Below the pieces are notes generated by a model. That model saw only the letters and a program-made list of their open reading frames with translations. It was not told the origin of the DNA and did no database searches. A DNA stretch of 32,000 bases, taken from assembly GCA_048939465.1 (NCBI GenBank), contig JBHLPL010000001.1, forward strand, positions 60,001 to 92,000. Reading direction: 5' to 3'. Positions within the stretch are counted from its first letter, which is position 1; each line of letters begins with the position of its first letter. Positions 2,743 to 26,488 of this stretch are shown one piece after another. The stretch is from Promethearchaeota archaeon (lineage in GTDB: Archaea > Asgardarchaeota > Odinarchaeia > Odinarchaeales > JBHLKK01). Position numbers and translations under genes: made by a program.

Positions 2743-3474
2743 CTAACCCCCCAAAACCTCTTCAAACATATCAAGCAAAACATAGCGAGTTGAGGGATCA
2801 ATGGCAACAGTTCCATAAGTTGGCACACCCAATAGTCTTCCCACAAGTTCTGGGTCCAATGAGTGGGGAAGGTCTTGTTTGTTTGCAATTGCAACAACCT
2901 TTGCATCAGGAACACGTTCTTGGACGAGGCTCATGATTCTCTTCCTGGTCCTGGCTACACTCGTTACAGACGAGTCCGTAACAACGATGATAATATCTGA
3001 GCCCCTGATCATTACGTCCCAGAATCGACCAAATCGTTCTTGTCCAGCGAAATCCCACACGATCACTTTTACTGGCGTTTCCACCCCTTCGAGATTTTTG
3101 ATATTGACCATTAGGGTAGGAGTATGGTTTATGGGAACTTCTTCATCAAAAAGCAATTTCAGCAGTGTTGTCTTGCCTGCACCGCCAAATCCCAAAAAGG
3201 AGACCTTAATGATCCTCATTAGCTGGCTTACGGAAAGTCTCATCTTACAGAAGGGACATTTACCTTTGGTCTTAACCCATTCAAGTATTTCTCTTCTGTG
3301 AGCAATACATCCACAGTTTGGGCAGTCTATTGTCTTATCGTTAGGTCCTATTGGCAGAAGGCATACTATGCAATTCTTCGCTCCCACTTTTTCCACCCAG
3401 TCTTCCGATCTGTGGATATTGCAGAGCGTCAAATCGATTAGGAAATCCTGTCTCTCTTCACTGGGCCACCTCAA
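2743..3474 (-). CDS. RING finger-small GTPase (Arf/Rab-like) fusion protein
   Basis: RING (CIVC...CPNC...H..E...W...CPFC) in one frame with G1 GFGGAGKT, G2 PT, G3 WDFAGQ and G4 NKQD. The true start may be the later GTG (MGAKNC...). Confidence 0.85.
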   Translation of the reverse strand: MRWPSEERQDFLIDLTLCNIHRSEDWVEKVGAKNCIVCLLPIGPNDKTIDCPNCGCIAHRREILEWVKTKGKCPFCKMRLSVSQLMRIIKVSFLGFGGAGKTTLLKLLFDEEVPINHTPTLMVNIKNLEGVETPVKVIVWDFAGQERFGRFWDVMIRGSDIIIVVTDSSVTSVARTRKRIMSLVQERVPDAKVVAIANKQDLPHSLDPELVGRLLGVPTYGTVAIDPSTRYVLLDMFEEVLGG

Positions 3475-3701
3475 ATCTTACAAGATTTTGTAGCCTAACT
3501 ACATAATTGACACTTGTAGTATAAAAGATTTGTGATGCGCTATTAATTCACAGCAAAGAAGTGTGTAAAACACGGTAACCCGCGGTTTCTTTGTTTAGAG
3601 TGAGTTGAAGGTACGATTAAATCTCCTTTGAGTAATTGAGTACTACGAATGTTTTTAAGTATTCTACTACAAATATGTATTGCGTTTGTGAGGGACTGAA
3701 T

Positions 3702-4184
3702 TTGAGCAGTTCAAAGCGGAAGCAATTTGAGATAAAGCTTGAAGTAATCAAAACTCCTAAGGGTGAAGTTCCCACGGTCAAAAGCTTAAGGCAGGTAGTT
3801 ATGGGTCTAAATGAATTGAATAGTGATATCGTTAATGTGAGGTCTCAGATTATGGGGGAAATAAAGGATTTAAAGCGTGATGTTACCGCAGTAAAGAAGT
3901 TGCTTGCCGAAGAGGCGGTTACTTTTGATGCCATCAATGAGAAGTTCACAGACCTTAACAACAGCTTGGAGTCTCTATTAAAGCAAAAAACAGATGATAA
4001 AACCCTGAAGGCTGTTAAGGGGGTAGGGGCTACTCTAAACTCTCTTGAGACTCAGCTTTCTGAAATGGCGAAAAATGTGAAAGATGGACTTGCGGAACAG
4101 GCCAAAAATGTTGCTAATGCCGTAGGCAAACTCTACCTTTTCCTTGAAAAGGCAGAAGAAGGAAAGAAGAAAAAGACCTCCTAG
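3702..4184 (+). CDS. Hypothetical coiled-coil protein
   Basis: Heptad-rich body after a short N-terminal beta-rich head (FEIKLEVIKTPKGEVPTV). Start refined to TTG 3702 (SD GAGGGA + 6 nt); ORF track starts at 3636. Confidence 0.75.
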   Translation: MSSSKRKQFEIKLEVIKTPKGEVPTVKSLRQVVMGLNELNSDIVNVRSQIMGEIKDLKRDVTAVKKLLAEEAVTFDAINEKFTDLNNSLESLLKQKTDDKTLKAVKGVGATLNSLETQLSEMAKNVKDGLAEQAKNVANAVGKLYLFLEKAEEGKKKKTS

Positions 4185-4194
4185 GCCTCTCTTA

Positions 4195-5229
4195 TTATGT
4201 GTAAAATCTATCTCTCTGTCTTTGTCTCTCTTCTAAGAAACTCACAAAGTCACTTAGGGTCGGATCATTCTCAAGTTCGTCGTGAATCAGTTCGGCTACG
4301 CTCAGAATTGATGCTGCAACATGTGCCTTGACTTGTTGTGTTTTCTTGTCGTCGGGCTTCAGGAAACTCATTATTCTTTTTTGAAACTGCTGTAGAGTCA
4401 GCAACCTATCAACCAAAAGACCGAATGATTTCATAATGTTCTCTCTTGTGGCTGAAGCATCCTCCTTTATTCCTACTGCTTCCATGGCACGAAGACATGG
4501 ATATAATATCTCAGAGCCAAACCAATTTACCAGAAGGCCTCTTTTGTCTATGGTCTTGAGAAAAACCGATAGTGGAATCCCAAGTTCTTTTATTCTATTC
4601 TTCGCCAGCTGGGCCGCTTTTTCTAGCCCTACTTCATGTGTGGCCTTAAGAACCCCTACCATGATTGAACTGACGGCAATGGAAAGAACCCTCCTGAGAT
4701 TGTTGGCTTCCAACAGCTTGTTGATTAGCTCCTTTGCTTCATCCAGATTAATGTCTGATATGACAAATGATTTTACGATTTCCAAAAGCTGACCTCTGAC
4801 CTCTAAGCTTTTCCCGTAACCTGTTCCGTCCAGGGCAAGTAGAGTATAGGCAGTCTCAAGTATTTCTTTATCAAACCATTGCACGACCAGGTATTCATTT
4901 GTAACCCTTCTCAAATCTGTGGCGGTCTTAACGTCTTTGAGTATATGTGCTAGCCGTTCAATAAACGTTTCAAAAATCGCAACTATGTATTCTTGGACAT
5001 TTGCGTCTATTCCGTATCTCTTCAACTCTTTTTTTATAATCTTTCTAAAGCCGGACTCGGTTATCTCTCCCTTCAAGTATTTAATGAACGGAGCAAAAAG
5101 ATCTTTTTTGAGATTGTCCAAAGAGGGCGGCTTGAGTTCCCTGACTAGCCTCTCAGTCATTCCCCACACTATGAAATAGTAGAAGTCTCCCATTGCCTTA
5201 TAGTATTCGCTAGCGAATTCCTCACCCAA
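4195..5229 (-). CDS. Hypothetical all-alpha protein, downstream partner of the HerA-like ATPase
   Basis: Long ORF with helical amphipathic pattern. Start refined to TTG 5229 (SD GAGGTGA + 7 nt), 7 nt after the ATPase stop. Confidence 0.75.
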   Translation of the reverse strand: MGEEFASEYYKAMGDFYYFIVWGMTERLVRELKPPSLDNLKKDLFAPFIKYLKGEITESGFRKIIKKELKRYGIDANVQEYIVAIFETFIERLAHILKDVKTATDLRRVTNEYLVVQWFDKEILETAYTLLALDGTGYGKSLEVRGQLLEIVKSFVISDINLDEAKELINKLLEANNLRRVLSIAVSSIMVGVLKATHEVGLEKAAQLAKNRIKELGIPLSVFLKTIDKRGLLVNWFGSEILYPCLRAMEAVGIKEDASATRENIMKSFGLLVDRLLTLQQFQKRIMSFLKPDDKKTQQVKAHVAASILSVAELIHDELENDPTLSDFVSFLEERQRQRDRFYT

Positions 5230-5236
5230 TTGCTGC

Positions 5237-7843
5237 TCACCTCTCATCAATGAGGTTTATCAGAGTATTCAAGAGTTCGCAGAACTTCCTGGCGTCTTCT
5301 TCGCTAGATGATACACCGACAAGAGATGCGATAGCGATTCTGTTGTTCTTTGCCGAAGTAATGGCAATTCTCAAGTTTCCCTTTCCAGCCAAAATTACAG
5401 GTATCTCCTCATCTGATGGCACACTATCGATTGTCCAATTCTTGGATTTCAGTAAATCATGGATCTCCTGCAGGACTACTTGAGGTTCCTTGGATACTTT
5501 CTTGTGACAAGTCTTGGAATATACCTTGATATCACTTGGGAACAAATGTTCGTGATATCTATACCTCATAAGTCTATTTAGAAATCTTTTTAACATGTCA
5601 TCTGGAACATCAAGGGTCTTCGGTGCTGGTATTTCATAAGATCCGGCCGCTGCCACTTTTTCTGAGTCTTCGGGGTTGGCCCCTTCTTCAATGACTTCTT
5701 CGTCAGGTATTGCATATTCAATAAGCTTTGGAGATGCTTCTCTTCCGGCATGCTGACTTGTTCTGGGTCGAATTCTCAAAACAAATCCCCGGTTCGTAGT
5801 TAGTCTGGTTGACTGATCCATTATTATGGGGGTTCCAACTGGAAGGCTTCTTATGAAACTCGACTTTGAAATTTCTTTGGGAATCTCTGCCGGGGATCTT
5901 TTCATGAGTGCCTTAATATCATCTGCATAAGTCAAGTTGTGAGCAATCAGAATATCTACTTGAGAGAGGATACGGGCGTCAGTTGCTGCTGGTTGTTGGG
6001 TACACAACAACAGCCCACATCCCGGTTTTCTGCCTTCTTTAGCGTAATCAATGAGGGGCTCAGAAGCAATTGTCTCTCCATCTGAAGGGACTACTTGCTG
6101 GGCTTCGTCTATTAGAAGCCAGGTTACTGGTATCTTTTCTTCTATATCCCCATATCCGAGATGTTTTGCCTCAATCGTTCTGGAGATCTTCTTTCGCTCT
6201 CTTAGGATCTTCCGTGCAAGAATCCCAACTACCAACTCCCGGATACTGTCCCCCAGAAAGCTTACATCTACTATAGTAATCTGATTTGGAACAACTATTT
6301 CGTTGAATGCTGTCCCTTTCTTAGAGAATATCCCCCATTGTTTGGCGGATTCCAGTCTAGAAATAACGGCTCTTCGAGTATCAAGTCTGAATCCTCCTTC
6401 CTTGGAAAGGATTTCCGTATCATCTTGAACGCACTTTATCATATCGTCAATAGTGTAATCTTCTCCTTTACCATCAATACGCATTCGGTTTCCATAGGCA
6501 TCCACCACGGAATAGCCGTCTCTAACCTTATTGACTACTCTTCCGGTCAGAAAACCTCTTGGACTGGACTGCTCCAGTTTAAAGAGATAACACCAATCAT
6601 CTGCAGTAAGCTCACCAGGCTTTATCGAGAATGCATCATCTCTTGTTTGTTCTGGAATCTGATGGAATAATCCTACAGGAACTAGGACCTGAACGTTTGA
6701 ATATCCCTCTGGGTCTAGTTTCCATTCCCCAAGATTCTCTAGCTCGTCCTTCTCCCAGTTCGGATATTTCATGCTCCAAAATATGCCCATCGGATCAACT
6801 ATCACAACAGCTATCCCGAGACCACATCTAGCTAGTTCTTCAGCAATGACTCCGAGTGTGTATGATTTTCCGGATCCCCGATGGCCGCATATGAAAATAA
6901 CGTGGGGTTTCACTGCGTCTACCAGTACCTTACGGCCGAAATACCCTTTACCGCCAGCAGGTTTTTCGCAGATCCTCCCAATATACAAAGTCCCACGACA
7001 TCCAAATTTCTCTTGAAATTGCTTGGTCCTCCCAACAATAACTGACTCTCCGAGACAGTCATCAAGGAGTCTCAGCTCCTCCTTCATTGCGGGGCTGTAT
7101 TCAACAGGAAACGATTCCTCCTTGAGGACTCTCATCTCCCCCCTTACGTGGTTGATGAGCATCTGCAGTTCTTCTATACTTCTCGGAGGTATGGTCAGCA
7201 TGCTTTCTATATATTTCCGAAGCTTATCCTTCTTTGGATAGTGCCCAGAGGAATATCCTGAGAGTTCCCACAGCATAAGCTCGATAGTCTCTTCTTTCGT
7301 CAGCCCCTCAAAAGGCACTGCGTCAACTGAAGCGGTGTCCAGAAATTTTGAATCACCCAACGCGAGGTACAAAAGGAGGGACGCATTTATCCTATCGTTT
7401 CCGTCGAATTCCTTCAGCATACTGATAGCATTCTCTAGGTATCTCGGTTCTTTTTTCACGTTATATGCCTGAAGAAGTATGCGAAATCGATGTACGTCTA
7501 TCTTGTTGTTAGATAGTGCGTAATCATATACCTTCTTCTCAGCCTCGTCAATATTTATTTCTAAGGCTCCCGAGGCTCCTTTCAATGCTTGAATGGTTTC
7601 CCAGGTATTCTTCAAAGGATCATCCTGAAATGCCCATTCCCCGGATGGTAATTGTGAGGAGAGAATGTCTTCGACAATGATTGATGCTATTTCCAGAAAG
7701 ACAAGGTCTTTTGTCATCTGATAGACTCGTACGCATGCATCGACGAGGAACGGTCTATCAACAGCTCTTGCGGATTCGGCACTGAAACTTGTTATGTAGT
7801 CTAGGATATGTGGTAATATTTCACATAGAGGTCTTCCATGCAA
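5237..7843 (-). CDS. HerA/FtsK/VirB4-superfamily ATPase (DUF87-type) with extra N- and C-terminal domains
   Basis: Walker A GHRGSGKS, VIVDPMG, Walker B WLLIDEAQ, EGRKPG arginine finger and TQQP. About 260-aa helical N-terminal extension and about 160-aa C-terminal extension. Confidence 0.88.
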   Translation of the reverse strand: MHGRPLCEILPHILDYITSFSAESARAVDRPFLVDACVRVYQMTKDLVFLEIASIIVEDILSSQLPSGEWAFQDDPLKNTWETIQALKGASGALEINIDEAEKKVYDYALSNNKIDVHRFRILLQAYNVKKEPRYLENAISMLKEFDGNDRINASLLLYLALGDSKFLDTASVDAVPFEGLTKEETIELMLWELSGYSSGHYPKKDKLRKYIESMLTIPPRSIEELQMLINHVRGEMRVLKEESFPVEYSPAMKEELRLLDDCLGESVIVGRTKQFQEKFGCRGTLYIGRICEKPAGGKGYFGRKVLVDAVKPHVIFICGHRGSGKSYTLGVIAEELARCGLGIAVVIVDPMGIFWSMKYPNWEKDELENLGEWKLDPEGYSNVQVLVPVGLFHQIPEQTRDDAFSIKPGELTADDWCYLFKLEQSSPRGFLTGRVVNKVRDGYSVVDAYGNRMRIDGKGEDYTIDDMIKCVQDDTEILSKEGGFRLDTRRAVISRLESAKQWGIFSKKGTAFNEIVVPNQITIVDVSFLGDSIRELVVGILARKILRERKKISRTIEAKHLGYGDIEEKIPVTWLLIDEAQQVVPSDGETIASEPLIDYAKEGRKPGCGLLLCTQQPAATDARILSQVDILIAHNLTYADDIKALMKRSPAEIPKEISKSSFIRSLPVGTPIIMDQSTRLTTNRGFVLRIRPRTSQHAGREASPKLIEYAIPDEEVIEEGANPEDSEKVAAAGSYEIPAPKTLDVPDDMLKRFLNRLMRYRYHEHLFPSDIKVYSKTCHKKVSKEPQVVLQEIHDLLKSKNWTIDSVPSDEEIPVILAGKGNLRIAITSAKNNRIAIASLVGVSSSEEDARKFCELLNTLINLIDER

Positions 7844-7885
7844 ATGGTTTCCCCCATTGGCAGATTCAGATGTTTTCAGAAGGAA

Positions 7886-8500
7886 TCATGACCTGCTTTC
7901 CTTTAGTTTCTTAATTTCTTTTTCCAGCTCTGAGACCTTCTTCTCCGGTGCTGGAAGAGCAATACCTGTTTCAACAGTTATCTCCTGATCGATTTCGGTC
8001 AACGTTTTTTCAATTTCCTTATCACTAATCTCTTGCGAAACCGTGATTTCGAGTCCTGATTCAGCGATCTCTTTCGACACCTCAAATTGCTGTAGCTGAC
8101 CTTCAACTTCTTTAATCAATTTGGCTATCTTTGGTACCTTCACAGCGTTCTTAAGTCCCCCAAGGACGTTACGGAGACTACCTAATATTTTGGACAAATC
8201 AGTAACAGATTCGCTTTGTCTGAGTTTTACAATTAGTCCCTCTATGGTCAATCTGTAGTTGTCAATGCCAACTGCCCACTTCTGAAATTGCAGGTAATGC
8301 TTTGCGTACGTCTTTGCAGCCTCATTATTGCCCTTGATACGTTGAGTTCGAGCTTTAGTACGGCTCTTGTCGCCTTCTCTTTCCAGTTGCATCCTTTGTC
8401 TATCGAGTTTCCGTGTGAGCAAATCCAACTGAAAAATGGCCTTCTCAAGCCTTTTTCTCTTAGACCCCCCTAACCAGTCAAACAAACGGCCTAACGACAA
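7886..8500 (-). CDS. ESCRT-III subunit, Vps2/24/46 class
   Basis: N-terminal amphipathic helix (LGRLFDWLGG), basic helical hairpin, acidic C-half, terminal MIM1-like ELEKEIKKLK; divergent from Vps4. Confidence 0.88.
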   Translation of the reverse strand: MSLGRLFDWLGGSKRKRLEKAIFQLDLLTRKLDRQRMQLEREGDKSRTKARTQRIKGNNEAAKTYAKHYLQFQKWAVGIDNYRLTIEGLIVKLRQSESVTDLSKILGSLRNVLGGLKNAVKVPKIAKLIKEVEGQLQQFEVSKEIAESGLEITVSQEISDKEIEKTLTEIDQEITVETGIALPAPEKKVSELEKEIKKLKESRS

Positions 8501-8661
8501 CTATTACACCTCATTAGTCACTGAAAGGTTGTACAACACACACAATTAAAGCTTACGAAATTACATCAAATACGGCTTTTCATCACCTAAGTTTTTTAGG
8601 TTTGTTCTTCTAATAGTTAACTAGCCTATCGCAATGTCTACAGAATCCTATTTTCCTGAGG

Positions 8662-9825
8662 TTGGGATTGATGTCTGATAAGCTGTTCAAATACGCCACC
8701 CAGATGGCGAAGGAAGCTGTGAAACTTGACAAGCAAGGCAAACAGAAGCTGGCTGTACAGAAATATATTCATGCGGCCGATATCTTGATGAGGTTTCTGA
8801 AATTAACCGAGAATCCCGCACTGAGAAAAGTATGTTATGAAAAGGCGGAGCAGTATGTGCAAAGAGCTAAAGAACTACAAGGTGTAACACCAGGTCTGCC
8901 GGCAGTATCAGAAAAAGCAGCGGGGAAAGCGCTGACCAAGGAAGATCAAGCCCTCCAAGAAGCAATCTCGGATACCATAATCACTGAGAAACCAAGTGTT
9001 GAATGGGAAGACGTAGCAAATCTAGAGACGGCAAAACAAGCCTTGAGAGAGGCTGTTATCTTACCGATGCTCAGACCAGATATTTTTACTGGTGCAAGGG
9101 AACCTTGGCGTGGATTATTGTTGATCGGACCACCCGGATGTGGAAAAACACTGCTCGCAAAAGCTGTGGCGAACGAATGCAACGCAACATTCTTCAGCGC
9201 TGACGCAGCCTCTTTGGTTTCAAAGTGGCTGGGAGAATCGGAAAAACTTGTAAGCACATTATTTACCGTTGCACGAAGTAGCTCCCCTTCCGTTGTGTTC
9301 ATCGACGAAGTGGATGCTTTGGCAACAGTTAGATCGGGTGATGAGGTTGGAGGTGAGCGGAGAATGAAGACGCAGCTATTAATAGAAATGGATGGGGTTC
9401 GAAAACGAAAGGGAGAGCAAGTAGTAGTTCTTGGCGCCACGAACAGGCCATGGGATCTTGACCCGGGTTTTCGTAGAAGGTTCGAAAAAAGAATTTATGT
9501 GCCCCTTCCTGATAAGGAAGGCCGTCGCGAGATATTTAAGATTCACGTCAGAGGAATTGAAATAGCTTCAGATGTTGATTTTGATGAACTAGCGACTCTT
9601 ACTGAGGGATACTCCGGCTCAGATATTGCGCTGATATGTAGGGATGCTGCCATGATGCCAATACGTGAACTGGATACCGCAGGCACGTTGACTAGGAAAG
9701 ATATCAAAGTTCGATCGGTAGATCGTGAGGATTTTCTGAAGTCCATGAAAAAGGTTAGGCCAACTGTTTCACCAGACGAACTGGAGAAATACGAGGAATG
9801 GACCAAAGAATTCGCATCAGAATGA
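8662..9825 (+). CDS. vps4: Vps4 AAA+ ATPase (MIT + AAA)
   Basis: N-terminal MIT (AKEAVKLDKQG...A...Y), GPPGCGKT, SKWLGESEK pore loop, FIDEVD, ATNRPWDLD...RRRFEKRIYVPLP, C-terminal YEEWTKEF. Likely start ATG 8671. Confidence 0.96.
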   Translation: MGLMSDKLFKYATQMAKEAVKLDKQGKQKLAVQKYIHAADILMRFLKLTENPALRKVCYEKAEQYVQRAKELQGVTPGLPAVSEKAAGKALTKEDQALQEAISDTIITEKPSVEWEDVANLETAKQALREAVILPMLRPDIFTGAREPWRGLLLIGPPGCGKTLLAKAVANECNATFFSADAASLVSKWLGESEKLVSTLFTVARSSSPSVVFIDEVDALATVRSGDEVGGERRMKTQLLIEMDGVRKRKGEQVVVLGATNRPWDLDPGFRRRFEKRIYVPLPDKEGRREIFKIHVRGIEIASDVDFDELATLTEGYSGSDIALICRDAAMMPIRELDTAGTLTRKDIKVRSVDREDFLKSMKKVRPTVSPDELEKYEEWTKEFASE

Positions 9826-9839
9826 ACTGGTGATATATA

Positions 9840-10586
9840 TTGTCGGTAAGGGAAAAGCCACGTAAAAAAGCTGGGAAGTCTCAAAAGGAAGAAACTGACA
9901 AGAAGGAGCGAATCAAAGAAGAGCTTGAGGAACTCAAGGAAGAAGTTGAAACAATGGTGGAGGCAGAAGAAGCTGAGACAATAGAAGAGGTTGAGAAAAT
10001 CCAAGAGCCTAGCGCTAGGCAACTTCCGAAGGCGGTTGCTGAGGAAATCTCCTCTGAATTGGAGAAGATCTGTAACTTATATGAATGGGTTGCAAATCCT
10101 GAACAAGTCAGATGGATGTATTGGATGCCCTCCAATAAAGAGCATATTGATTCATGGAGAGACGAATGGGCTGATTTCTTGTTTCAATGGGCCCGAGCAA
10201 AAATCCTTCATATAGTAACACTGGTCTTGCTTATGGGTGAACACCCATTTGATAAGTTATCTCCAAAGGTGGATTCGCTGAGAGTTATTATGAAAACCCT
10301 AGCTGAGAAGGATCTTGCTGAATTCTTGGATAATAAAGAAACCAGATTGCGAATATACTGGAGGACTCTTAATGAGTGGGCAGAAATAATCTATAACTGG
10401 GCACTCAATACCGGAAGAATGGATATAAGTGTTTTTGATGTTATTAATGACAGAGGGGAAAAGTGGGGCTTTCACACGCTGCCAGCGAAAGAAATTAGAC
10501 TCATCTTCAGGATTATGGTAGAGCGTGGGTTGGCCCGTTGGATGGACGAGAAGAGAGGCCATATTGAGATAAGAGTAGACTTTTGA
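9840..10586 (+). CDS. vps25: ESCRT-II Vps25-like protein with charged N-terminal extension
   Basis: W..EWADFLFQW and IYWRTLNEWAEIIYNW motifs typical of Vps25 tandem winged helices; 14 nt downstream of vps4. Confidence 0.88.
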   Translation: MSVREKPRKKAGKSQKEETDKKERIKEELEELKEEVETMVEAEEAETIEEVEKIQEPSARQLPKAVAEEISSELEKICNLYEWVANPEQVRWMYWMPSNKEHIDSWRDEWADFLFQWARAKILHIVTLVLLMGEHPFDKLSPKVDSLRVIMKTLAEKDLAEFLDNKETRLRIYWRTLNEWAEIIYNWALNTGRMDISVFDVINDRGEKWGFHTLPAKEIRLIFRIMVERGLARWMDEKRGHIEIRVDF

Positions 10587-10706: not shown

Positions 10707-13700
10707 GTGGTCGTCATGCAAGCCAAAAGAAAAAATCTGCTAATATCTCTGGTCTTCACACTATTTCTGATCTCAACGCTCTCATCAATTACAGTTCCAC
10801 CCGTCACAGCTTCTCCAGATACTGCTGACTGGTGGAATTATAACTGGAATCAGAGGGTTCCAGTGATGATAAACACAACAGGTCACAACACATCCGACAT
10901 ACCGATAAAGATCGAAGGAATTAATTTCACTCAGCTTCTACTGGATCTGGGTGTCGGCTCTCCCCACGATAATAACTCGGTAAGAGTCGTGGAGTGGAAC
11001 GTAGCATCGGAACTGAACACTGAATTACCGAGCTTATTTGCTCCTGCAGGCACGTATGACAGCTCCAGCAATGCTGTAGGTGATGTTTACTGGACAATGA
11101 ATGGAACAACACTTGAAAACACAAACAGAACCTTCTATGTATACTTCGATACTACTGATGCTCCTGGTGGTCCCAAGAGCCCACCAAGCTACAGTGTGGA
11201 TCCTCGTCTACCTGAAGGAATAGCCTATGTAAGAAACGCTAAGGACGATATATCTTATGAATCGGCCCAACAACTTGCTGCGGAATATGGGCTCGCCCAA
11301 GCTGCACTGTTCAATGAAAGCGTGAAATCAGGAAGTCATTACAGGAGCGGATCGGGTTGGCAAAACAACAGTATAGATCTCGTACCTGATGACTACTCAA
11401 TGATAATACTTGGGTCAGACTCCCTAGACGGTGGCGAAATACCTGGAAAACTCGATATAGACTCCCAATTCAGATCAAACTTGGAAGCTTTCATTGCTGG
11501 CGGCGGGATACTTGTTATTCAACAGATAACGTCAAGCGATCCTGCCCAGCCACTGACTGGAATTCAGTTCACAAGCTCTCACGGAGAAAGCTATAAGAAA
11601 CCACTGCAACAGCACGAAATCACAACTAATCCAAACAATATTCGAACTGAAAATCTCAATTCGCTTTCAGATGGATTTGATAAAATTACGGACTCTACTC
11701 GCTACTCTTCGATAGCCAACGTGACAGATAACGGCGGAGGTCCAACAGGCCATCGAATCAGAATCATTCAGAGAGGAGCAGGCTATGTTATTGTAGAGGT
11801 ACTGGGATGGACCTCAACTGGCGATATAGATAAGTGGAAACAGATCTTTGAAAACTATCTGAATTATCATATCAACCACACAAAGGATAGTCTGGCCATA
11901 ACCGTTGGCAGCCAAGCAGAATATAGTCTGATTAACGATGTTACCGTAGTTGTAACAAATCATGAAGGATTATTCGTTCCTGACGCAAATGTTACTATGG
12001 TCAACACGACAGCCCAGGCAAACAATCTTAGTGGCTACAACCAATGGGCATTAACAGATAGCAACGGCCAAGTTTTCTTCCCGGATGTACCAGATAACAA
12101 CTATAATGTTACGGCAACTTACGTAACTAACATGGGAGATAGCACCGGAATTCTGAACGATACATTTTCAAACTTCAACATCAATTATACTCAAACCCTC
12201 AATCTTAAAGTAAACATTACAAGGCTATTAGTGAACATCACTGATGTAGATAATATGACCCAGTATGATCTGATACCTAACTGGGCAGAACATTATATCG
12301 TTGGCCTTTTCAACCAGTCCGATGGGAGTCCGATGGCCAACACAACGACAACAACCTTGTACGAGTCTGGTGGTATTAACTGGCTTGTAGGAGAACTCTG
12401 GTGGCATAATTCATCGGACAATCATGTGATCAAAGTATTGTATGAGCATCCTGATTATTCGAATACACTGACTCTTAACGAGACTAGTAACATACAACTT
12501 GATGTTTCGACTTCCTTCAACGTCAACGTCAGTATGACAAGGCTGACTGTTTTTGCCCGTGGGTATCCGACCATCGATCCGCTTGTTAATGTGGTTCTTG
12601 AGTTGAGCAACGATACGCAAGCAATAGCTAATGTCACAGCAGACGATTCAGGAGCGGTAGTCTTCTACTGGAGGACTCAACCCTCGCAGAATTACTCTAT
12701 ACGCGCATTCTACTTCGATACACTGGTCTCATTCATCAAATTCCATGAAAGCTGGTCTGATTGGAATGAAAGCGTTAGCCTACCACTTCCAAATGCTACC
12801 GAAAAGCTGATTGATATTCAGCTGGGTGCGGAGTATGAGACGGATCTTGTACTAACTGCTTTTACCCCCGACGTCACGTATGGGGATAACGTAACGGTCA
12901 CCGTGTATTTCAATGTCACAAGTCCTTCGCCAAGACCCGTAACTGGAGCAACCGCCAGATGCTACCTCAGAGTGGGAACAACAGATATCTTTATGGAAAC
13001 AATGACTGAGGCAGGTTCCGGATATTATACACTGACATTCAACACGACTCACTACGGTGGCATAATAGGCGATGAAAACATAGAATATCGTATCTTAGTA
13101 ATTGTTGAAAAATCAGGGTATACCTCTCCTACGCCGATATTCACCGACCTGACAATCAGGGGGCTCGCAACAACTTTGGATTGTTCAATCTCACCAGAAA
13201 CCATTTACTGGGGCGACCTCATAACAGTAGACGTTACGTACGAGGATTTGGAGGACGCAACAGTCTCATACATAATTGGAAGTTGGGATTCTGGCGTATT
13301 CAGTGATCTTGGAAATGGAAACTACCGCACCTCGATAGACACCTCTAAATCGTCCTTCTGGGGAGACTACATATTAAAAATAACTGCCGAAAAGCCGAAT
13401 TATGAAATGAAGTACGCAGAAATAGCTCTTAGAATCAATCAGATACAGACTCTGATAAACGGATCTCGTATACTTGTCACATCACCCATCAGCGTGTATG
13501 CAATGGAAGACAGTTTAATACACTTCAACTACACAACAGCTGGCAATATCGGCATCAACTCGACAGTCCATCAGTACTACTGGGAGAGCATATCAAGCGG
13601 TAGTGGCTACGGAGACTTGTCTTATCTTGGGAACGGTATGTATGGGCTGGATTTTGATACTTCGAACAGATTTGTTGATGAATACACAATTGCTGTTATA

Positions 13701-14663
13701 TTTGAGAAATCGAATTATGAGGCAAGAACTGCTACATTCAATCTGAAGGTACTCGGGAGACCCGCAGATTTTGAAACCGTCAGTTCATCCGTTTCAGCTG
13801 CTCACGGTAATGAGGCAACATTCAGCTTCCACATTTCAGATGCTCTAACCGGTCTTCCTCTTGAAAATGTGTCCATAGTCCTAGACTGTAGCATAAATCC
13901 GGCATATTTGTCTTGGATTAATGGTAGTGGATGGTATAACCTAACCATACTCACTGCAAATCTTTCGCCCGGTTCATACGATATCAAATTGGTCATTACT
14001 CAATCAAACTACACAACTGAAGTCGAAAACGTTCATATGACCGTTGAATATGAAAGAATCCTTGGGATGCCTTGGCCTTCATTTATTCTAATGATTTCAT
14101 TCATAGCTGGTGCCGTTGCTGCTACTGGGGGCCTTTTCAGATTCTACACTTGGAAGAAAGTACCGCCTCTTGTCAGGAACATCAATAAGAGCCTCAAACA
14201 CATGCAGCAAGGAGAAGTTGTAAACATAAAAAAGACGTTTCCAGACACAAAGGATAGGGACTATGTTCTCGGAGAATTCCTGAACGAAGAGCTGGAGATT
14301 CTGGGAATAAGATCTGCAGCCTATGGGGAAGAAGGTTCTCAACTGCTCTCCATAGTTTCGGCGGCGACTTCATCCGAAACCGAAACAACGGAGTCTGAAA
14401 CGCAGGTTATCAGGGCAGCGGAATCTGAGACTTTGCCTGAACCGGAAGCAACACAACCTGAAATGAAGGAATCTGAAGCAATGCCAAAAGAACCAGTCGA
14501 AGAACTTGAGGTAACCAAGGAACCTGAAATAGAGAAACCGGAGAAGAAAAAGCCTTACTCGGCAAAAGCCGGACCTAAGAGGCTAAAGACCAAGAAAACA
14601 GAAAAGAGAGAATCGAAATCAAGGTCAGGGAAGTCAAAGGCAAAAAACAAGGTGCAGAAATAA
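10707..14663 (+). CDS. Large membrane-anchored surface protein (DUF2341-like N-terminus, Ig-like/beta-sandwich repeats)
   Basis: Signal peptide; WWNYNWNQRVPV start of the mature domain; repeated T/ADxxG.V.F and GxGxY motifs; many N-x-S/T sequons; TM helix (WPSFILMISFIAGAVAATGGLF); acidic then Lys-rich cytoplasmic tail. Confidence 0.8.
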   Translation: MVVMQAKRKNLLISLVFTLFLISTLSSITVPPVTASPDTADWWNYNWNQRVPVMINTTGHNTSDIPIKIEGINFTQLLLDLGVGSPHDNNSVRVVEWNVASELNTELPSLFAPAGTYDSSSNAVGDVYWTMNGTTLENTNRTFYVYFDTTDAPGGPKSPPSYSVDPRLPEGIAYVRNAKDDISYESAQQLAAEYGLAQAALFNESVKSGSHYRSGSGWQNNSIDLVPDDYSMIILGSDSLDGGEIPGKLDIDSQFRSNLEAFIAGGGILVIQQITSSDPAQPLTGIQFTSSHGESYKKPLQQHEITTNPNNIRTENLNSLSDGFDKITDSTRYSSIANVTDNGGGPTGHRIRIIQRGAGYVIVEVLGWTSTGDIDKWKQIFENYLNYHINHTKDSLAITVGSQAEYSLINDVTVVVTNHEGLFVPDANVTMVNTTAQANNLSGYNQWALTDSNGQVFFPDVPDNNYNVTATYVTNMGDSTGILNDTFSNFNINYTQTLNLKVNITRLLVNITDVDNMTQYDLIPNWAEHYIVGLFNQSDGSPMANTTTTTLYESGGINWLVGELWWHNSSDNHVIKVLYEHPDYSNTLTLNETSNIQLDVSTSFNVNVSMTRLTVFARGYPTIDPLVNVVLELSNDTQAIANVTADDSGAVVFYWRTQPSQNYSIRAFYFDTLVSFIKFHESWSDWNESVSLPLPNATEKLIDIQLGAEYETDLVLTAFTPDVTYGDNVTVTVYFNVTSPSPRPVTGATARCYLRVGTTDIFMETMTEAGSGYYTLTFNTTHYGGIIGDENIEYRILVIVEKSGYTSPTPIFTDLTIRGLATTLDCSISPETIYWGDLITVDVTYEDLEDATVSYIIGSWDSGVFSDLGNGNYRTSIDTSKSSFWGDYILKITAEKPNYEMKYAEIALRINQIQTLINGSRILVTSPISVYAMEDSLIHFNYTTAGNIGINSTVHQYYWESISSGSGYGDLSYLGNGMYGLDFDTSNRFVDEYTIAVIFEKSNYEARTATFNLKVLGRPADFETVSSSVSAAHGNEATFSFHISDALTGLPLENVSIVLDCSINPAYLSWINGSGWYNLTILTANLSPGSYDIKLVITQSNYTTEVENVHMTVEYERILGMPWPSFILMISFIAGAVAATGGLFRFYTWKKVPPLVRNINKSLKHMQQGEVVNIKKTFPDTKDRDYVLGEFLNEELEILGIRSAAYGEEGSQLLSIVSAATSSETETTESETQVIRAAESETLPEPEATQPEMKESEAMPKEPVEELEVTKEPEIEKPEKKKPYSAKAGPKRLKTKKTEKRESKSRSGKSKAKNKVQK

Positions 14664-25840: not shown

Positions 25841-26488
25841 TTACTCTTTTTCTTTTTCCTCTTCTGGTATGTCTTCTTTAAGCCCTTTCTTAATATCTTC
25901 AAGTTCCTTCCGTATTTTGTCCTTCTTCTTTTCAGCGACAGCCTTCTCTTTTTCGGTGGGAATCTCAGGTAACTCTTCTTCTATGGCCACTTCCTCTTGA
26001 AGTTTTGCTAACTCCCTCTCTACGTCAATGTCTTCGCCTTCATCCAAAGCTGTGGCACTTAACATCTCACTGGTTTTCTCTATCTCATCAACCAGTTGTT
26101 CAGTTTTTAGCATAACTTCAGTAGCTTTCTCACTTGACATAAGTCTTCTTGCTTCTTCAAGTTGTTCAAGACCAACTTCAAGGGCACGTCCCATGTCGGC
26201 AGTATCTCTAGCAGTCTCGATCATATCAATAACATCTTCTAGGCTGCCTACCTGTCTATGATAACGATTCATCCATGTGGTATATCTTTTCCATTTTCGA
26301 AGATGTGTCCTTGCCCCATCTGTGTTTCCTTGCCTTACAAGCTCTCTTGCTCTCTGCTTGCTTTCTCCTGCCTTTCTTTCAAATCCACGAACTCTGAGTG
26401 TCATCTTGTTGATTGTTGCACGCATTTCTGTAACTGCTTCGTCTCTGCTTTCCTTTTTCTTGGGGAATAGCTTCCTCAGAAAACCCAA
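25841..26488 (-). CDS. ESCRT-III subunit, Vps20/32/60 (Snf7) class
   Basis: MGFLRKLF amphipathic helix, G...AR..LRK.KRY hairpin, IETA, DIDVERELAKLQEE...ELPEIP, MIM-like IRKELEDIKK. Confidence 0.88.
   Translation of the reverse strand: MGFLRKLFPKKKESRDEAVTEMRATINKMTLRVRGFERKAGESKQRARELVRQGNTDGARTHLRKWKRYTTWMNRYHRQVGSLEDVIDMIETARDTADMGRALEVGLEQLEEARRLMSSEKATEVMLKTEQLVDEIEKTSEMLSATALDEGEDIDVERELAKLQEEVAIEEELPEIPTEKEKAVAEKKKDKIRKELEDIKKGLKEDIPEEEKEKE

Follow-up and report, generated by a model that had tools for sequence, protein, structure and literature searches.

Why should a gene for a ring motor of a DNA-pumping superfamily lie directly behind a gene for ESCRT-III, which cuts membranes? The question is raised by a 32,000-nucleotide stretch of a Promethearchaeota archaeon genome (NCBI GenBank assembly GCA_048939465.1, contig JBHLPL010000001.1, positions 60,001 to 92,000 of the forward strand; hereafter the window, with positions counted from its first letter). 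In the window, a gene for a type A subunit of the endosomal sorting complex ESCRT-III (ESCRT-IIIA) is followed on the minus strand by the genes of an 868-aa HerA-clade ATPase and of a 344-aa all-helical partner, which we named PART. We consider the unit to be the Hodarchaeota variant of an ESCRT-III locus to which a HerA-type motor module has been added. Our preferred reading is that the module is an accessory part of the Asgard ESCRT-III machinery in which a HerA ring would move DNA at a constricting neck, and we give it a probability of about 0.45.

Asgard ESCRT-III and Vps4 attract study as the immediate precursor of membrane remodelling in eukaryotes, and Hodarchaeales are placed nearest to eukaryotes by current phylogenies. 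The picture of two subunits plus Vps4 omits the ATPase gene. A conserved second motor of a DNA-pumping superfamily in several Asgard classes, Hodarchaeales included, would add a player to the ESCRT machinery, and the HerA-type motor and its partner are probably an additional, so far overlooked part of the machinery passed down to eukaryotes. The unit would also provide a testable handle on what Asgard ESCRT does (division, vesicle formation or DNA transfer) and on how archaea that use ESCRT exclude DNA from a membrane neck as it closes, or deliver DNA into it. Since these are soluble proteins of moderate size, binding, ATPase and translocation assays that employ previously purified Asgard ESCRT-IIIA and ESCRT-IIIB would be feasible without culture.

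The three-gene unit and its HerA-clade motor

The window belongs to a metagenome-assembled genome (MAG) of 1.96 Mb that is 91% complete and has Hodarchaeota as its nearest named relatives; the public sequencing runs containing window DNA were mangrove and sediment metagenomes, with no RNA run among them. On the minus strand, ESCRT-IIIA (7886-8500, 204 aa; TTG start with GAGGTG 8 nt upstream) is followed after 42 nt by the ATPase (5237-7843; TTG start, with an ‘xxGR’ N-terminus that matches 28 homologues) and, after a further 7 nt, by PART (4195-5229; TTG at 5229 with GAGGTGA 7 nt upstream). Neither gap contains a TATA-like element or a T-run, and a T-rich stretch lies 3’ of the PART stop. A spacer of 161 nt (8501-8661), the putative promoter region of both units, separates ESCRT-IIIA from the divergent plus-strand genes vps4 (8662-9825; MIT, AAA and Vps4_C domains by Pfam, NCBIfam CdvC at 7.7e-102) and vps25 of ESCRT-II (9840-10586), and holds a TTTAAT element that lies upstream of the start of ESCRT-IIIA by about 45 nt. 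The initial annotation had already described these three frames with their coordinates and gaps, and had placed them divergent from vps4-vps25; both descriptions were borne out. Judged from the spacing, the three genes are presumably co-transcribed, and the 7-nt gap with its Shine-Dalgarno sequence suggests that PART may be translationally coupled to the ATPase.

The first gene had been assigned to the Vps2/24/46 type, and the assignment agrees with our results. Its product belongs to the Snf7 family (52.1 bits, 8e-14; Pfam cut-off 27.3), and its nearest PDB sequences are CHMP1B, CHMP2A and CHMP3, which indicates an A type (CHMP1-3 type). The product of a second Snf7 gene of the window (25841-26488, minus strand), located about 18 kb from the ATPase/PART unit, matched both Snf7 and, in a phmmer search of PDB sequences, the Heimdall ESCRT-IIIB 9ftl (2.9e-17), indicating a B type (Vps20/32/60 type). 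In the Snf7 tree, the genes upstream of the ATPase and those downstream of it formed two clades (100), corresponding to the A and B types, with 7886-8500 in the upstream clade and 25841-26488 in the downstream clade. The C-terminal helix of ESCRT-IIIA (ELEKEIKKLKE) is conserved and, judged by eye, has a hydrophobic spacing like that of MIM1, a type of helix that binds the MIT domain of Vps4.

The motor of the ATPase is of the HerA clade, and is nearest to HerA rather than to FtsK, VirB4 or TrwB. We modelled the protein with AlphaFold2 as a monomer from an alignment of 29 sequences (mean predicted local distance difference test score, pLDDT, 85). The HAS-barrel-like region and RecA-type core (aa 250-703; 5735-7096, minus strand) carry the Pfam family DUF87 (52 bits, cut-off 23.2), and DUF87 and HerA_C were matched by all 29 ATPase relatives. 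VIA-align superposed the core on Sulfolobus HerA (4d2i_B) with Z 30.8 over 338 residues at a root-mean-square deviation of 3.4 Å, compared to Z values of 23.7 for VirB4, 18.9 for TrwB, 17.9 for FtsK and about 17-18 for EccC/EssC. HerA was also the best PDB sequence match by phmmer (4d2i, 5.7e-7) and made up nearly all of the top 50 Foldseek matches (E about 1e-14, best 8e-15), the others being TdpAB and DndH. The description of the motor as ‘HerA/VirB4-like’ can therefore be kept for its first half, whereas VirB4-like is not the best description; the NCBIfam model NF045975 (VirB4_plasma) scored 18.7 bits against a cut-off of 590. The FtsK_SpoIIIE family (PF01580) had no match in the ATPase at E<=0.1 and was matched weakly by two of the 29 relatives (E 0.0036). 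Walker A (GHRGSGKSYT, aa 320-329; 6857-6886), Walker B (LLIDEA, aa 576-581; DE at 6104-6109 within LLIDEAQ at 6098-6118) and many Arg residues are invariant in the 29 sequences, the coordinates of both motifs having been checked by translation. The sequence suggests that the ATPase is very likely to be catalytically active.

The ATPase does not group with the HerA of DNA repair. It shares with S. solfataricus HerA (4d2i) and Thermococcus HerA-NurA (9x1m) the HAS-barrel and RecA-type core, the helical insert, the Walker motifs and DUF87, but it is only 17-21% identical to repair HerA, has an extra 245-aa toroid N-domain and a 120-aa C-domain, and has no NurA, Mre11 or Rad50 neighbour, its adjoining genes being ESCRT-IIIA and PART. 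The best NCBIfam model for repair HerA (NF040937) gave 44.2 bits against an equivalog cut-off of 800. A careful maximum-likelihood tree set the ATPase apart, with support of 100/99, from each of the five HerA-like paralogues that the same genome encodes, one of which adjoins a gene for an Mre11-like phosphoesterase.

Two accessory domains flank the core. The N-terminal domain (aa 1-245; 7109-7843, minus strand; pLDDT about 90) was modelled as an alpha/alpha-toroid of the six-hairpin kind, with 12 helices within aa 10-242. VIA-align matched 217-233 of its residues to the thioester domains of alpha-2-macroglobulin and C3d, GH76, AGE (N-acylglucosamine) epimerase, glucuronyl hydrolase and terpene synthase with Z 10-12.4, although values below about 13 are moderate evidence for helical repeats and may reflect a common arrangement alone. 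A language-model feature search of the Atlas pointed to squalene cyclase/prenyltransferase families (score 0.83), which we treat as a lead only, and no Pfam toroid family was significant in any of the 29 ATPase members. An acidic disordered linker (aa 704-745; 5609-5734, minus strand; pLDDT 28-52), which differs in length among homologues, leads to the clade-specific C-terminal alpha/beta domain (aa 746-868; 5240-5608, minus strand; pLDDT about 77-88), for which the Atlas feature search returned nothing usable. A hidden Markov model (HMM) of the N-domain matched all ESCRT-linked homologues; that of the C-domain matched all of these and the Bathyarchaeota form, matched the Thorarchaeota form weakly, and found no match in euryarchaeal or DPANN relatives. 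Both domains co-occur with the ESCRT-linked clade and mark it. Complex prediction for the N- and C-domains with ESCRT-IIIA scored 0.01, which is no verdict and counts neither way.

PART was modelled as three helical bundles (pLDDT 78), and its TTG start agrees with that of a 344-aa Hodarchaeota homologue (P0130). A Jordarchaeia gene in the same position is 36% identical over its full length (E 6e-79), and the form of a Heimdall-labelled family (f27) was matched at E 3e-9. No family was found for PART in Pfam, PDB sequences, PADLOC or PHROGs. At the level of fold, Foldseek against the PDB gave nothing at E<=0.001, the VIA-wide comparison gave only generic helical bundles (Z<=7.8), and the Atlas gave template-modelling (TM) scores of at most 0.34. 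An AlphaFold database cluster named ‘Cullin family profile domain-containing protein’ (E 1.5e-5, TM 0.45) was not adopted, as it was unsupported by the other searches. The family is very small, with 22 representatives among 1.84 billion; its close members adjoin the ATPase and its more distant members stand alone. In homologues of three families, the C-terminus of PART (about aa 325-345) carries an invariant ‘DP(S/T)L’ motif with a charged helix behind it, a candidate docking motif.

Recurrence beside ESCRT-III genes in Asgard archaea

We compared 135 loci, in which the genes were labelled by profiles made from window proteins. The loci are related to one another and their counts are not independent; only about seven GTDB families can be taken as independent units. 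Full-length homologues of the ATPase were found at 79-89% identity in Hodarchaeota and at 32-46% identity in Jord/Freyarchaeia, Helarchaeota, other Asgard lineages and Bathyarchaeota. Among 30 distinct ATPases with both extra domains, 21 had ESCRT-IIIA immediately upstream, and 15 had ESCRT-IIIB immediately downstream, either directly or after PART. The ESCRT-linked ATPases span seven Asgard families (Hodarchaeota, Jord/Freyarchaeia, a Helarchaeota-type family and four others, f3, f7, f18 and f30), in which the insertion point and the orientation are kept at ATPase identities down to about 40%. The adjacency is thus not unique to this genome, and it recurs outside the seven families in a Bathyarchaeota-type ESCRT cluster.

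Hodarchaeota loci have the same gene order as the window. In Jord/Freyarchaeia the order is ESCRT-IIIA, ATPase (about 1015 aa), PART and ESCRT-IIIB, with no further ESCRT gene close by; in a closed genome of this group, the MIT-bearing Vps4 is encoded about 750 kb from the ESCRT-III/ATPase/PART locus. As these four genes stand apart from vps4, the link is one to ESCRT-III as such, rather than to the cluster as a whole. The shared C-domain of the Jord/Freyarchaeia ATPase (e.g. L008:8001-11054) ends near residue 890, after which come about 125 further residues that the Hodarchaeota protein lacks. Loci of the Helarchaeota type and of f3, f7, f18 and f30 contain ESCRT-IIIA, ATPase and ESCRT-IIIB without PART, mostly beside vps4-vps25, and the divergent vps4-vps25 arrangement is shared by the Hodarchaeota, Helarchaeota-type, f3 and f18 loci. 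A typical Asgard Helarchaeota-type cluster of Vps4, ESCRT-IIIA, ATPase and ESCRT-IIIB was also seen in a contig labelled as the bacterium ‘Candidatus Deferrimicrobium sp.’ (L067, DATKTP010000243.1), a bin that is probably mislabelled or contaminated. We evaluated the possibility that the ATPase replaces Vps4 in Jord/Freyarchaeia and rejected it, since MIT-bearing proteins of about 390 aa are encoded elsewhere in those genomes. Every carrier checked has kept a Vps4 with MIT, which is encoded elsewhere in the Jordarchaeia, f7 and f27 genomes.

The upstream and downstream Snf7 clades suggest that the ancestral order was ESCRT-IIIA, ATPase, (PART), ESCRT-IIIB, and this order in turn implies that ESCRT-IIIB moved by about 18 kb in Hodarchaeota, where it is displaced but still inside the same ESCRT super-cluster. 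In Asgard families that do not have the ATPase, two ESCRT-III genes stand directly in tandem with gaps of about 120 nt (G026:C1:1586901-1588046, with further examples in G222:C24, G085:C36, G054:C8, G003:C38 and G066:C8). This gap is the exact site that the ATPase, with or without PART, occupies in carriers. Snf7 genes were present in 263 of the 268 Asgard genomes with at least 85% completeness.

The Bathyarchaeota-type cluster was found in a Bathyarchaeota MAG and in a related metagenome contig (L013:1963-9473 and L055:2193-8398). In it, Snf7 is followed by a 200-aa gene and by one for a Vps25-like winged-helix protein, after which come the gene of the ATPase (747-770 aa, containing half of the N-domain) and that of Vps4. 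In the metagenome contig (L013), genes for an FHA protein and a Ser/Thr kinase lie upstream of the cluster. A sister clade of the ATPase, from Methanofastidiosa-like and Thermococci-labelled MAGs, consists of proteins of about 800 aa with winged helix-turn-helix or other N-termini. These are always encoded 3’ of a 521-527-aa EF-Tu-like GTPase, as a conserved pair (L069:5373-9376, L086:4742-8479, L077, L079, L082, L085). A supposed ‘Vps4’ near these euryarchaeal genes proved to be the proteasome ATPase PAN, and with the upstream 521-aa gene being that of the EF-Tu-like GTPase, there is no ESCRT link at those loci.

PART is less widely distributed than the motor. It is confined to three families, where it accompanies 17 of the 30 ATPases with both extra domains, and a profile search did not find it in five PART-less carriers that are 82-95% complete. 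The helical third gene that the initial annotation had made part of the unit is present and coupled in the window, but it is not a universal component. The proposal of an undescribed multi-gene unit linked to ESCRT holds, on the grounds of the recurring adjacency and of the separation of the ATPase from repair HerA. The window contains the same ESCRT and ubiquitin genes, in the usual divergent layout, as the canonical Asgard ubiquitin-ESCRT cluster (PMC9192718; PMC10936438; ESCRT-IIIA/IIIB, PMC11804906), from which it differs by the ATPase directly after ESCRT-IIIA; in other lineages the ATPase lies between ESCRT-IIIA and ESCRT-IIIB. The text of Hatano 2022 (PMC9192718), Makarova 2024 (PMC10936438), Souza 2025 (PMC11804906) and the Liu 2020 preprint contains no HerA/FtsK/DUF87 ATPase or helical partner, which may nevertheless appear as an unlabelled arrow in the figures, and neither was present in a portion of Table S2 of Makarova 2024. 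A keyword search of the Asgard and ESCRT literature returned nothing relevant on a HerA-type ATPase.

What the motor may act on

A functional link of the ATPase to ESCRT-III is likely in our judgement, given that a catalytically intact ATPase with two clade-specific domains lies between or after ESCRT-III genes across deep Asgard lineages that have retained Vps4. That its substrate is DNA is a more tentative proposal. We ranked a DNA pump before other functions because those of the solved HerA-clade matches whose entry titles name a role with DNA (HerA-NurA, TdpAB and anti-phage HerA complexes with DNA) act on DNA, and because HerA has been proposed as an archaeal analogue of FtsK, reportedly by Iyer and colleagues in 2004. 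By our proposal, ESCRT-IIIA would be made together with the HerA-clade ring translocase and PART, and the clade-specific domains, PART or both would dock the hexamer on ESCRT-III polymers or on the membrane at the constricting neck. There the ring would spend ATP to move double-stranded DNA, acting alongside Vps4 and not as its replacement. The outcome could be either clearance of the chromosome from the scission site, as with FtsK, or the loading of DNA into vesicles or protrusions made by ESCRT; the coupling of scission to pumping is suggested by analogy with HerA and FtsK. The wider claim, that a HerA-type DNA pump with docking domains (and a helical adaptor in some lineages) is an old component of Asgard ESCRT-III that couples scission to DNA translocation, appears doubtful. 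If it were true, the module would be the functional counterpart of FtsK in archaea, which was predicted in 2004 but is not known to have been connected with an apparatus of division or scission, and the lineage leading to eukaryotes would either have lost the DNA pump or never have had it.

Several observations weigh against a DNA pump of the ESCRT-III machinery. A homologue of the ATPase (E<=1e-30) was found in 101 of 301 sampled Asgard genomes and was absent in the other 200, though almost all have ESCRT-III; a family of the same order with 1.4-Mb genomes had no homologue (0/4), and the largest family, f9, had one in 68. Being absent from about two-thirds of the sampled genomes, the module cannot be a core ESCRT component. 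The paralogue of Thorarchaeota (f6) is shorter, has no N-domain and a weak C-domain, and stands outside ESCRT context among uninformative neighbours (tRNA methyltransferase, NUDIX, MarR). The f27 family keeps the ATPase-PART pair, with ESCRT-IIIB adjacent in some members only and most copies not linked to ESCRT, and the ATPase copy of Bathyarchaeota RBG_16_48_13 stands alone. Within the protein itself, Pfam scans recognised no nuclease or DNA-binding domain, and no membrane anchor was apparent, the N-domain being modelled as soluble and no dedicated transmembrane predictor having been run. The alpha/alpha-toroid usually binds glycans, isoprenoids or peptides and gives no pointer to DNA, and the EccC/EssC motors of the wider FtsK-like superfamily, which the model also matches, act on protein.

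The last of these points, together with the failure of Pfam scans to find a DNA-binding or nuclease module, would fit a ring that is a second remodelling motor for ESCRT-III or for protein cargo, working at a step other than that of Vps4. It would bind ESCRT-IIIA/IIIB through the toroid, the C-domain or PART, and would thread, extract or reorganise subunits, for example in filament nucleation, in the exchange of A and B subunits or in the translocation of cargo into forming vesicles. The position of the gene exactly between those of the A-type and B-type subunits in seven families fits such a role, as do the ESCRT-III genes of Jord/Freyarchaeia, which travel with the ATPase and not with vps4, and the match of the model to the protein-secretion ATPases EccC/EssC (Z about 17-18). 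We nevertheless consider it unlikely: the nearest relatives by fold and sequence with a stated DNA role handle DNA, the ATPase has neither MIT nor another known ESCRT-III-binding module (PF04212, PF00004 and PF09336, for MIT, AAA and Vps4_C, were absent from it at E<=0.1, and all three were present in 8662-9825), and the MIT-bearing Vps4 persists in the carriers checked.

The toroid could instead bind an archaeal isoprenoid lipid or a surface glycan, with the motor powering a rearrangement of lipid or envelope, or anchoring, at ESCRT-III sites. Its resemblance to six-hairpin toroids, a fold typical of proteins that handle isoprenoids, glycans and thioesters, the Atlas lead to squalene cyclases and prenyltransferases, and the restriction of the N-domain to the ESCRT-linked clade would all suit this idea. 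The low Z values, which for helical repeats may mean a common arrangement alone, and the lack of a significant Pfam toroid family in the 29 members make it very unlikely, and we know of no HerA motor that acts on lipid. Equally improbable in our view is that the ATPase and PART are a HerA pair of DNA repair, defence or a mobile element that occupies a permissive site and has no tie to ESCRT. Anti-phage systems commonly combine a HerA ATPase with a variable partner (matches to the HerA models of PADLOC reached 58 bits, over partial lengths), the distribution among Asgard archaea is patchy, and the copies of Thorarchaeota, together with some of those of Bathyarchaeota and f27, are situated away from ESCRT loci. 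One insertion point and one orientation across seven families, at identities down to about 40%, are, however, unlike defence islands, and the Bathyarchaeota-type cluster provides a separate ESCRT context. PART belongs to no family of PADLOC or PHROGs, and there is no effector domain; with 44 bits against 800, the ATPase did not come near the curated cut-offs for HerA equivalogs, and PADLOC and PHROGs returned only weak generic HerA or terminase-like matches for the unit. The DNA-moving accessory module remains our preferred reading on this evidence.

Relation to other ring motors and neighbouring genes

The proposed module invites comparison with FtsK/SpoIIIE, the septal DNA translocases of bacteria, which belong to the same ring-pump superfamily and with which it would share the notion that a DNA pump is linked genetically to the machinery of division or scission. 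It differs in that the ATPase is not a PF01580 member, has an N-domain modelled as a soluble toroid and is much closer to HerA. Vps4/CdvC is likewise an ATP-driven ring encoded beside ESCRT-III genes, but the ATPase is of the HerA/FtsK superfamily and not an AAA+ protein, with no match to MIT or Vps4_C. The anti-phage HerA pairs (Sir2-HerA/Nezha, DUF4297-HerA and TdpAB) share the order of a HerA-type core gene followed by a tightly coupled second gene; PART, unlike their second components, is a non-enzymatic helical protein without a PADLOC family, and its locus is a conserved, housekeeping-type ESCRT cluster and not a variable island.

The window also holds ESCRT-I genes and a ubiquitin cassette. 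Convergent with PART, at its end, is a gene (3636-4184, plus strand) for a coiled-coil protein of about 170-180 aa, which no Pfam family matched above threshold. The gene occupies the same place in both other Hodarchaeota loci (L007 and L015), and a 135-aa relative lies within Helarchaeota-type ESCRT clusters (L021, L066 and L067); the protein may be a further ESCRT-associated coiled-coil protein. Just past this gene is one whose product joins a RING finger to an Arf-like GTPase (2743-3474, minus strand). On the other side of the unit, between the vps4-vps25 block and the ESCRT-I/II block, a surface protein of 1318 aa is encoded (10707-14663, plus strand), secreted or anchored and containing a CarboxypepD_reg domain, and a gene for this protein was found in the same place in the Hodarchaeota locus L007.

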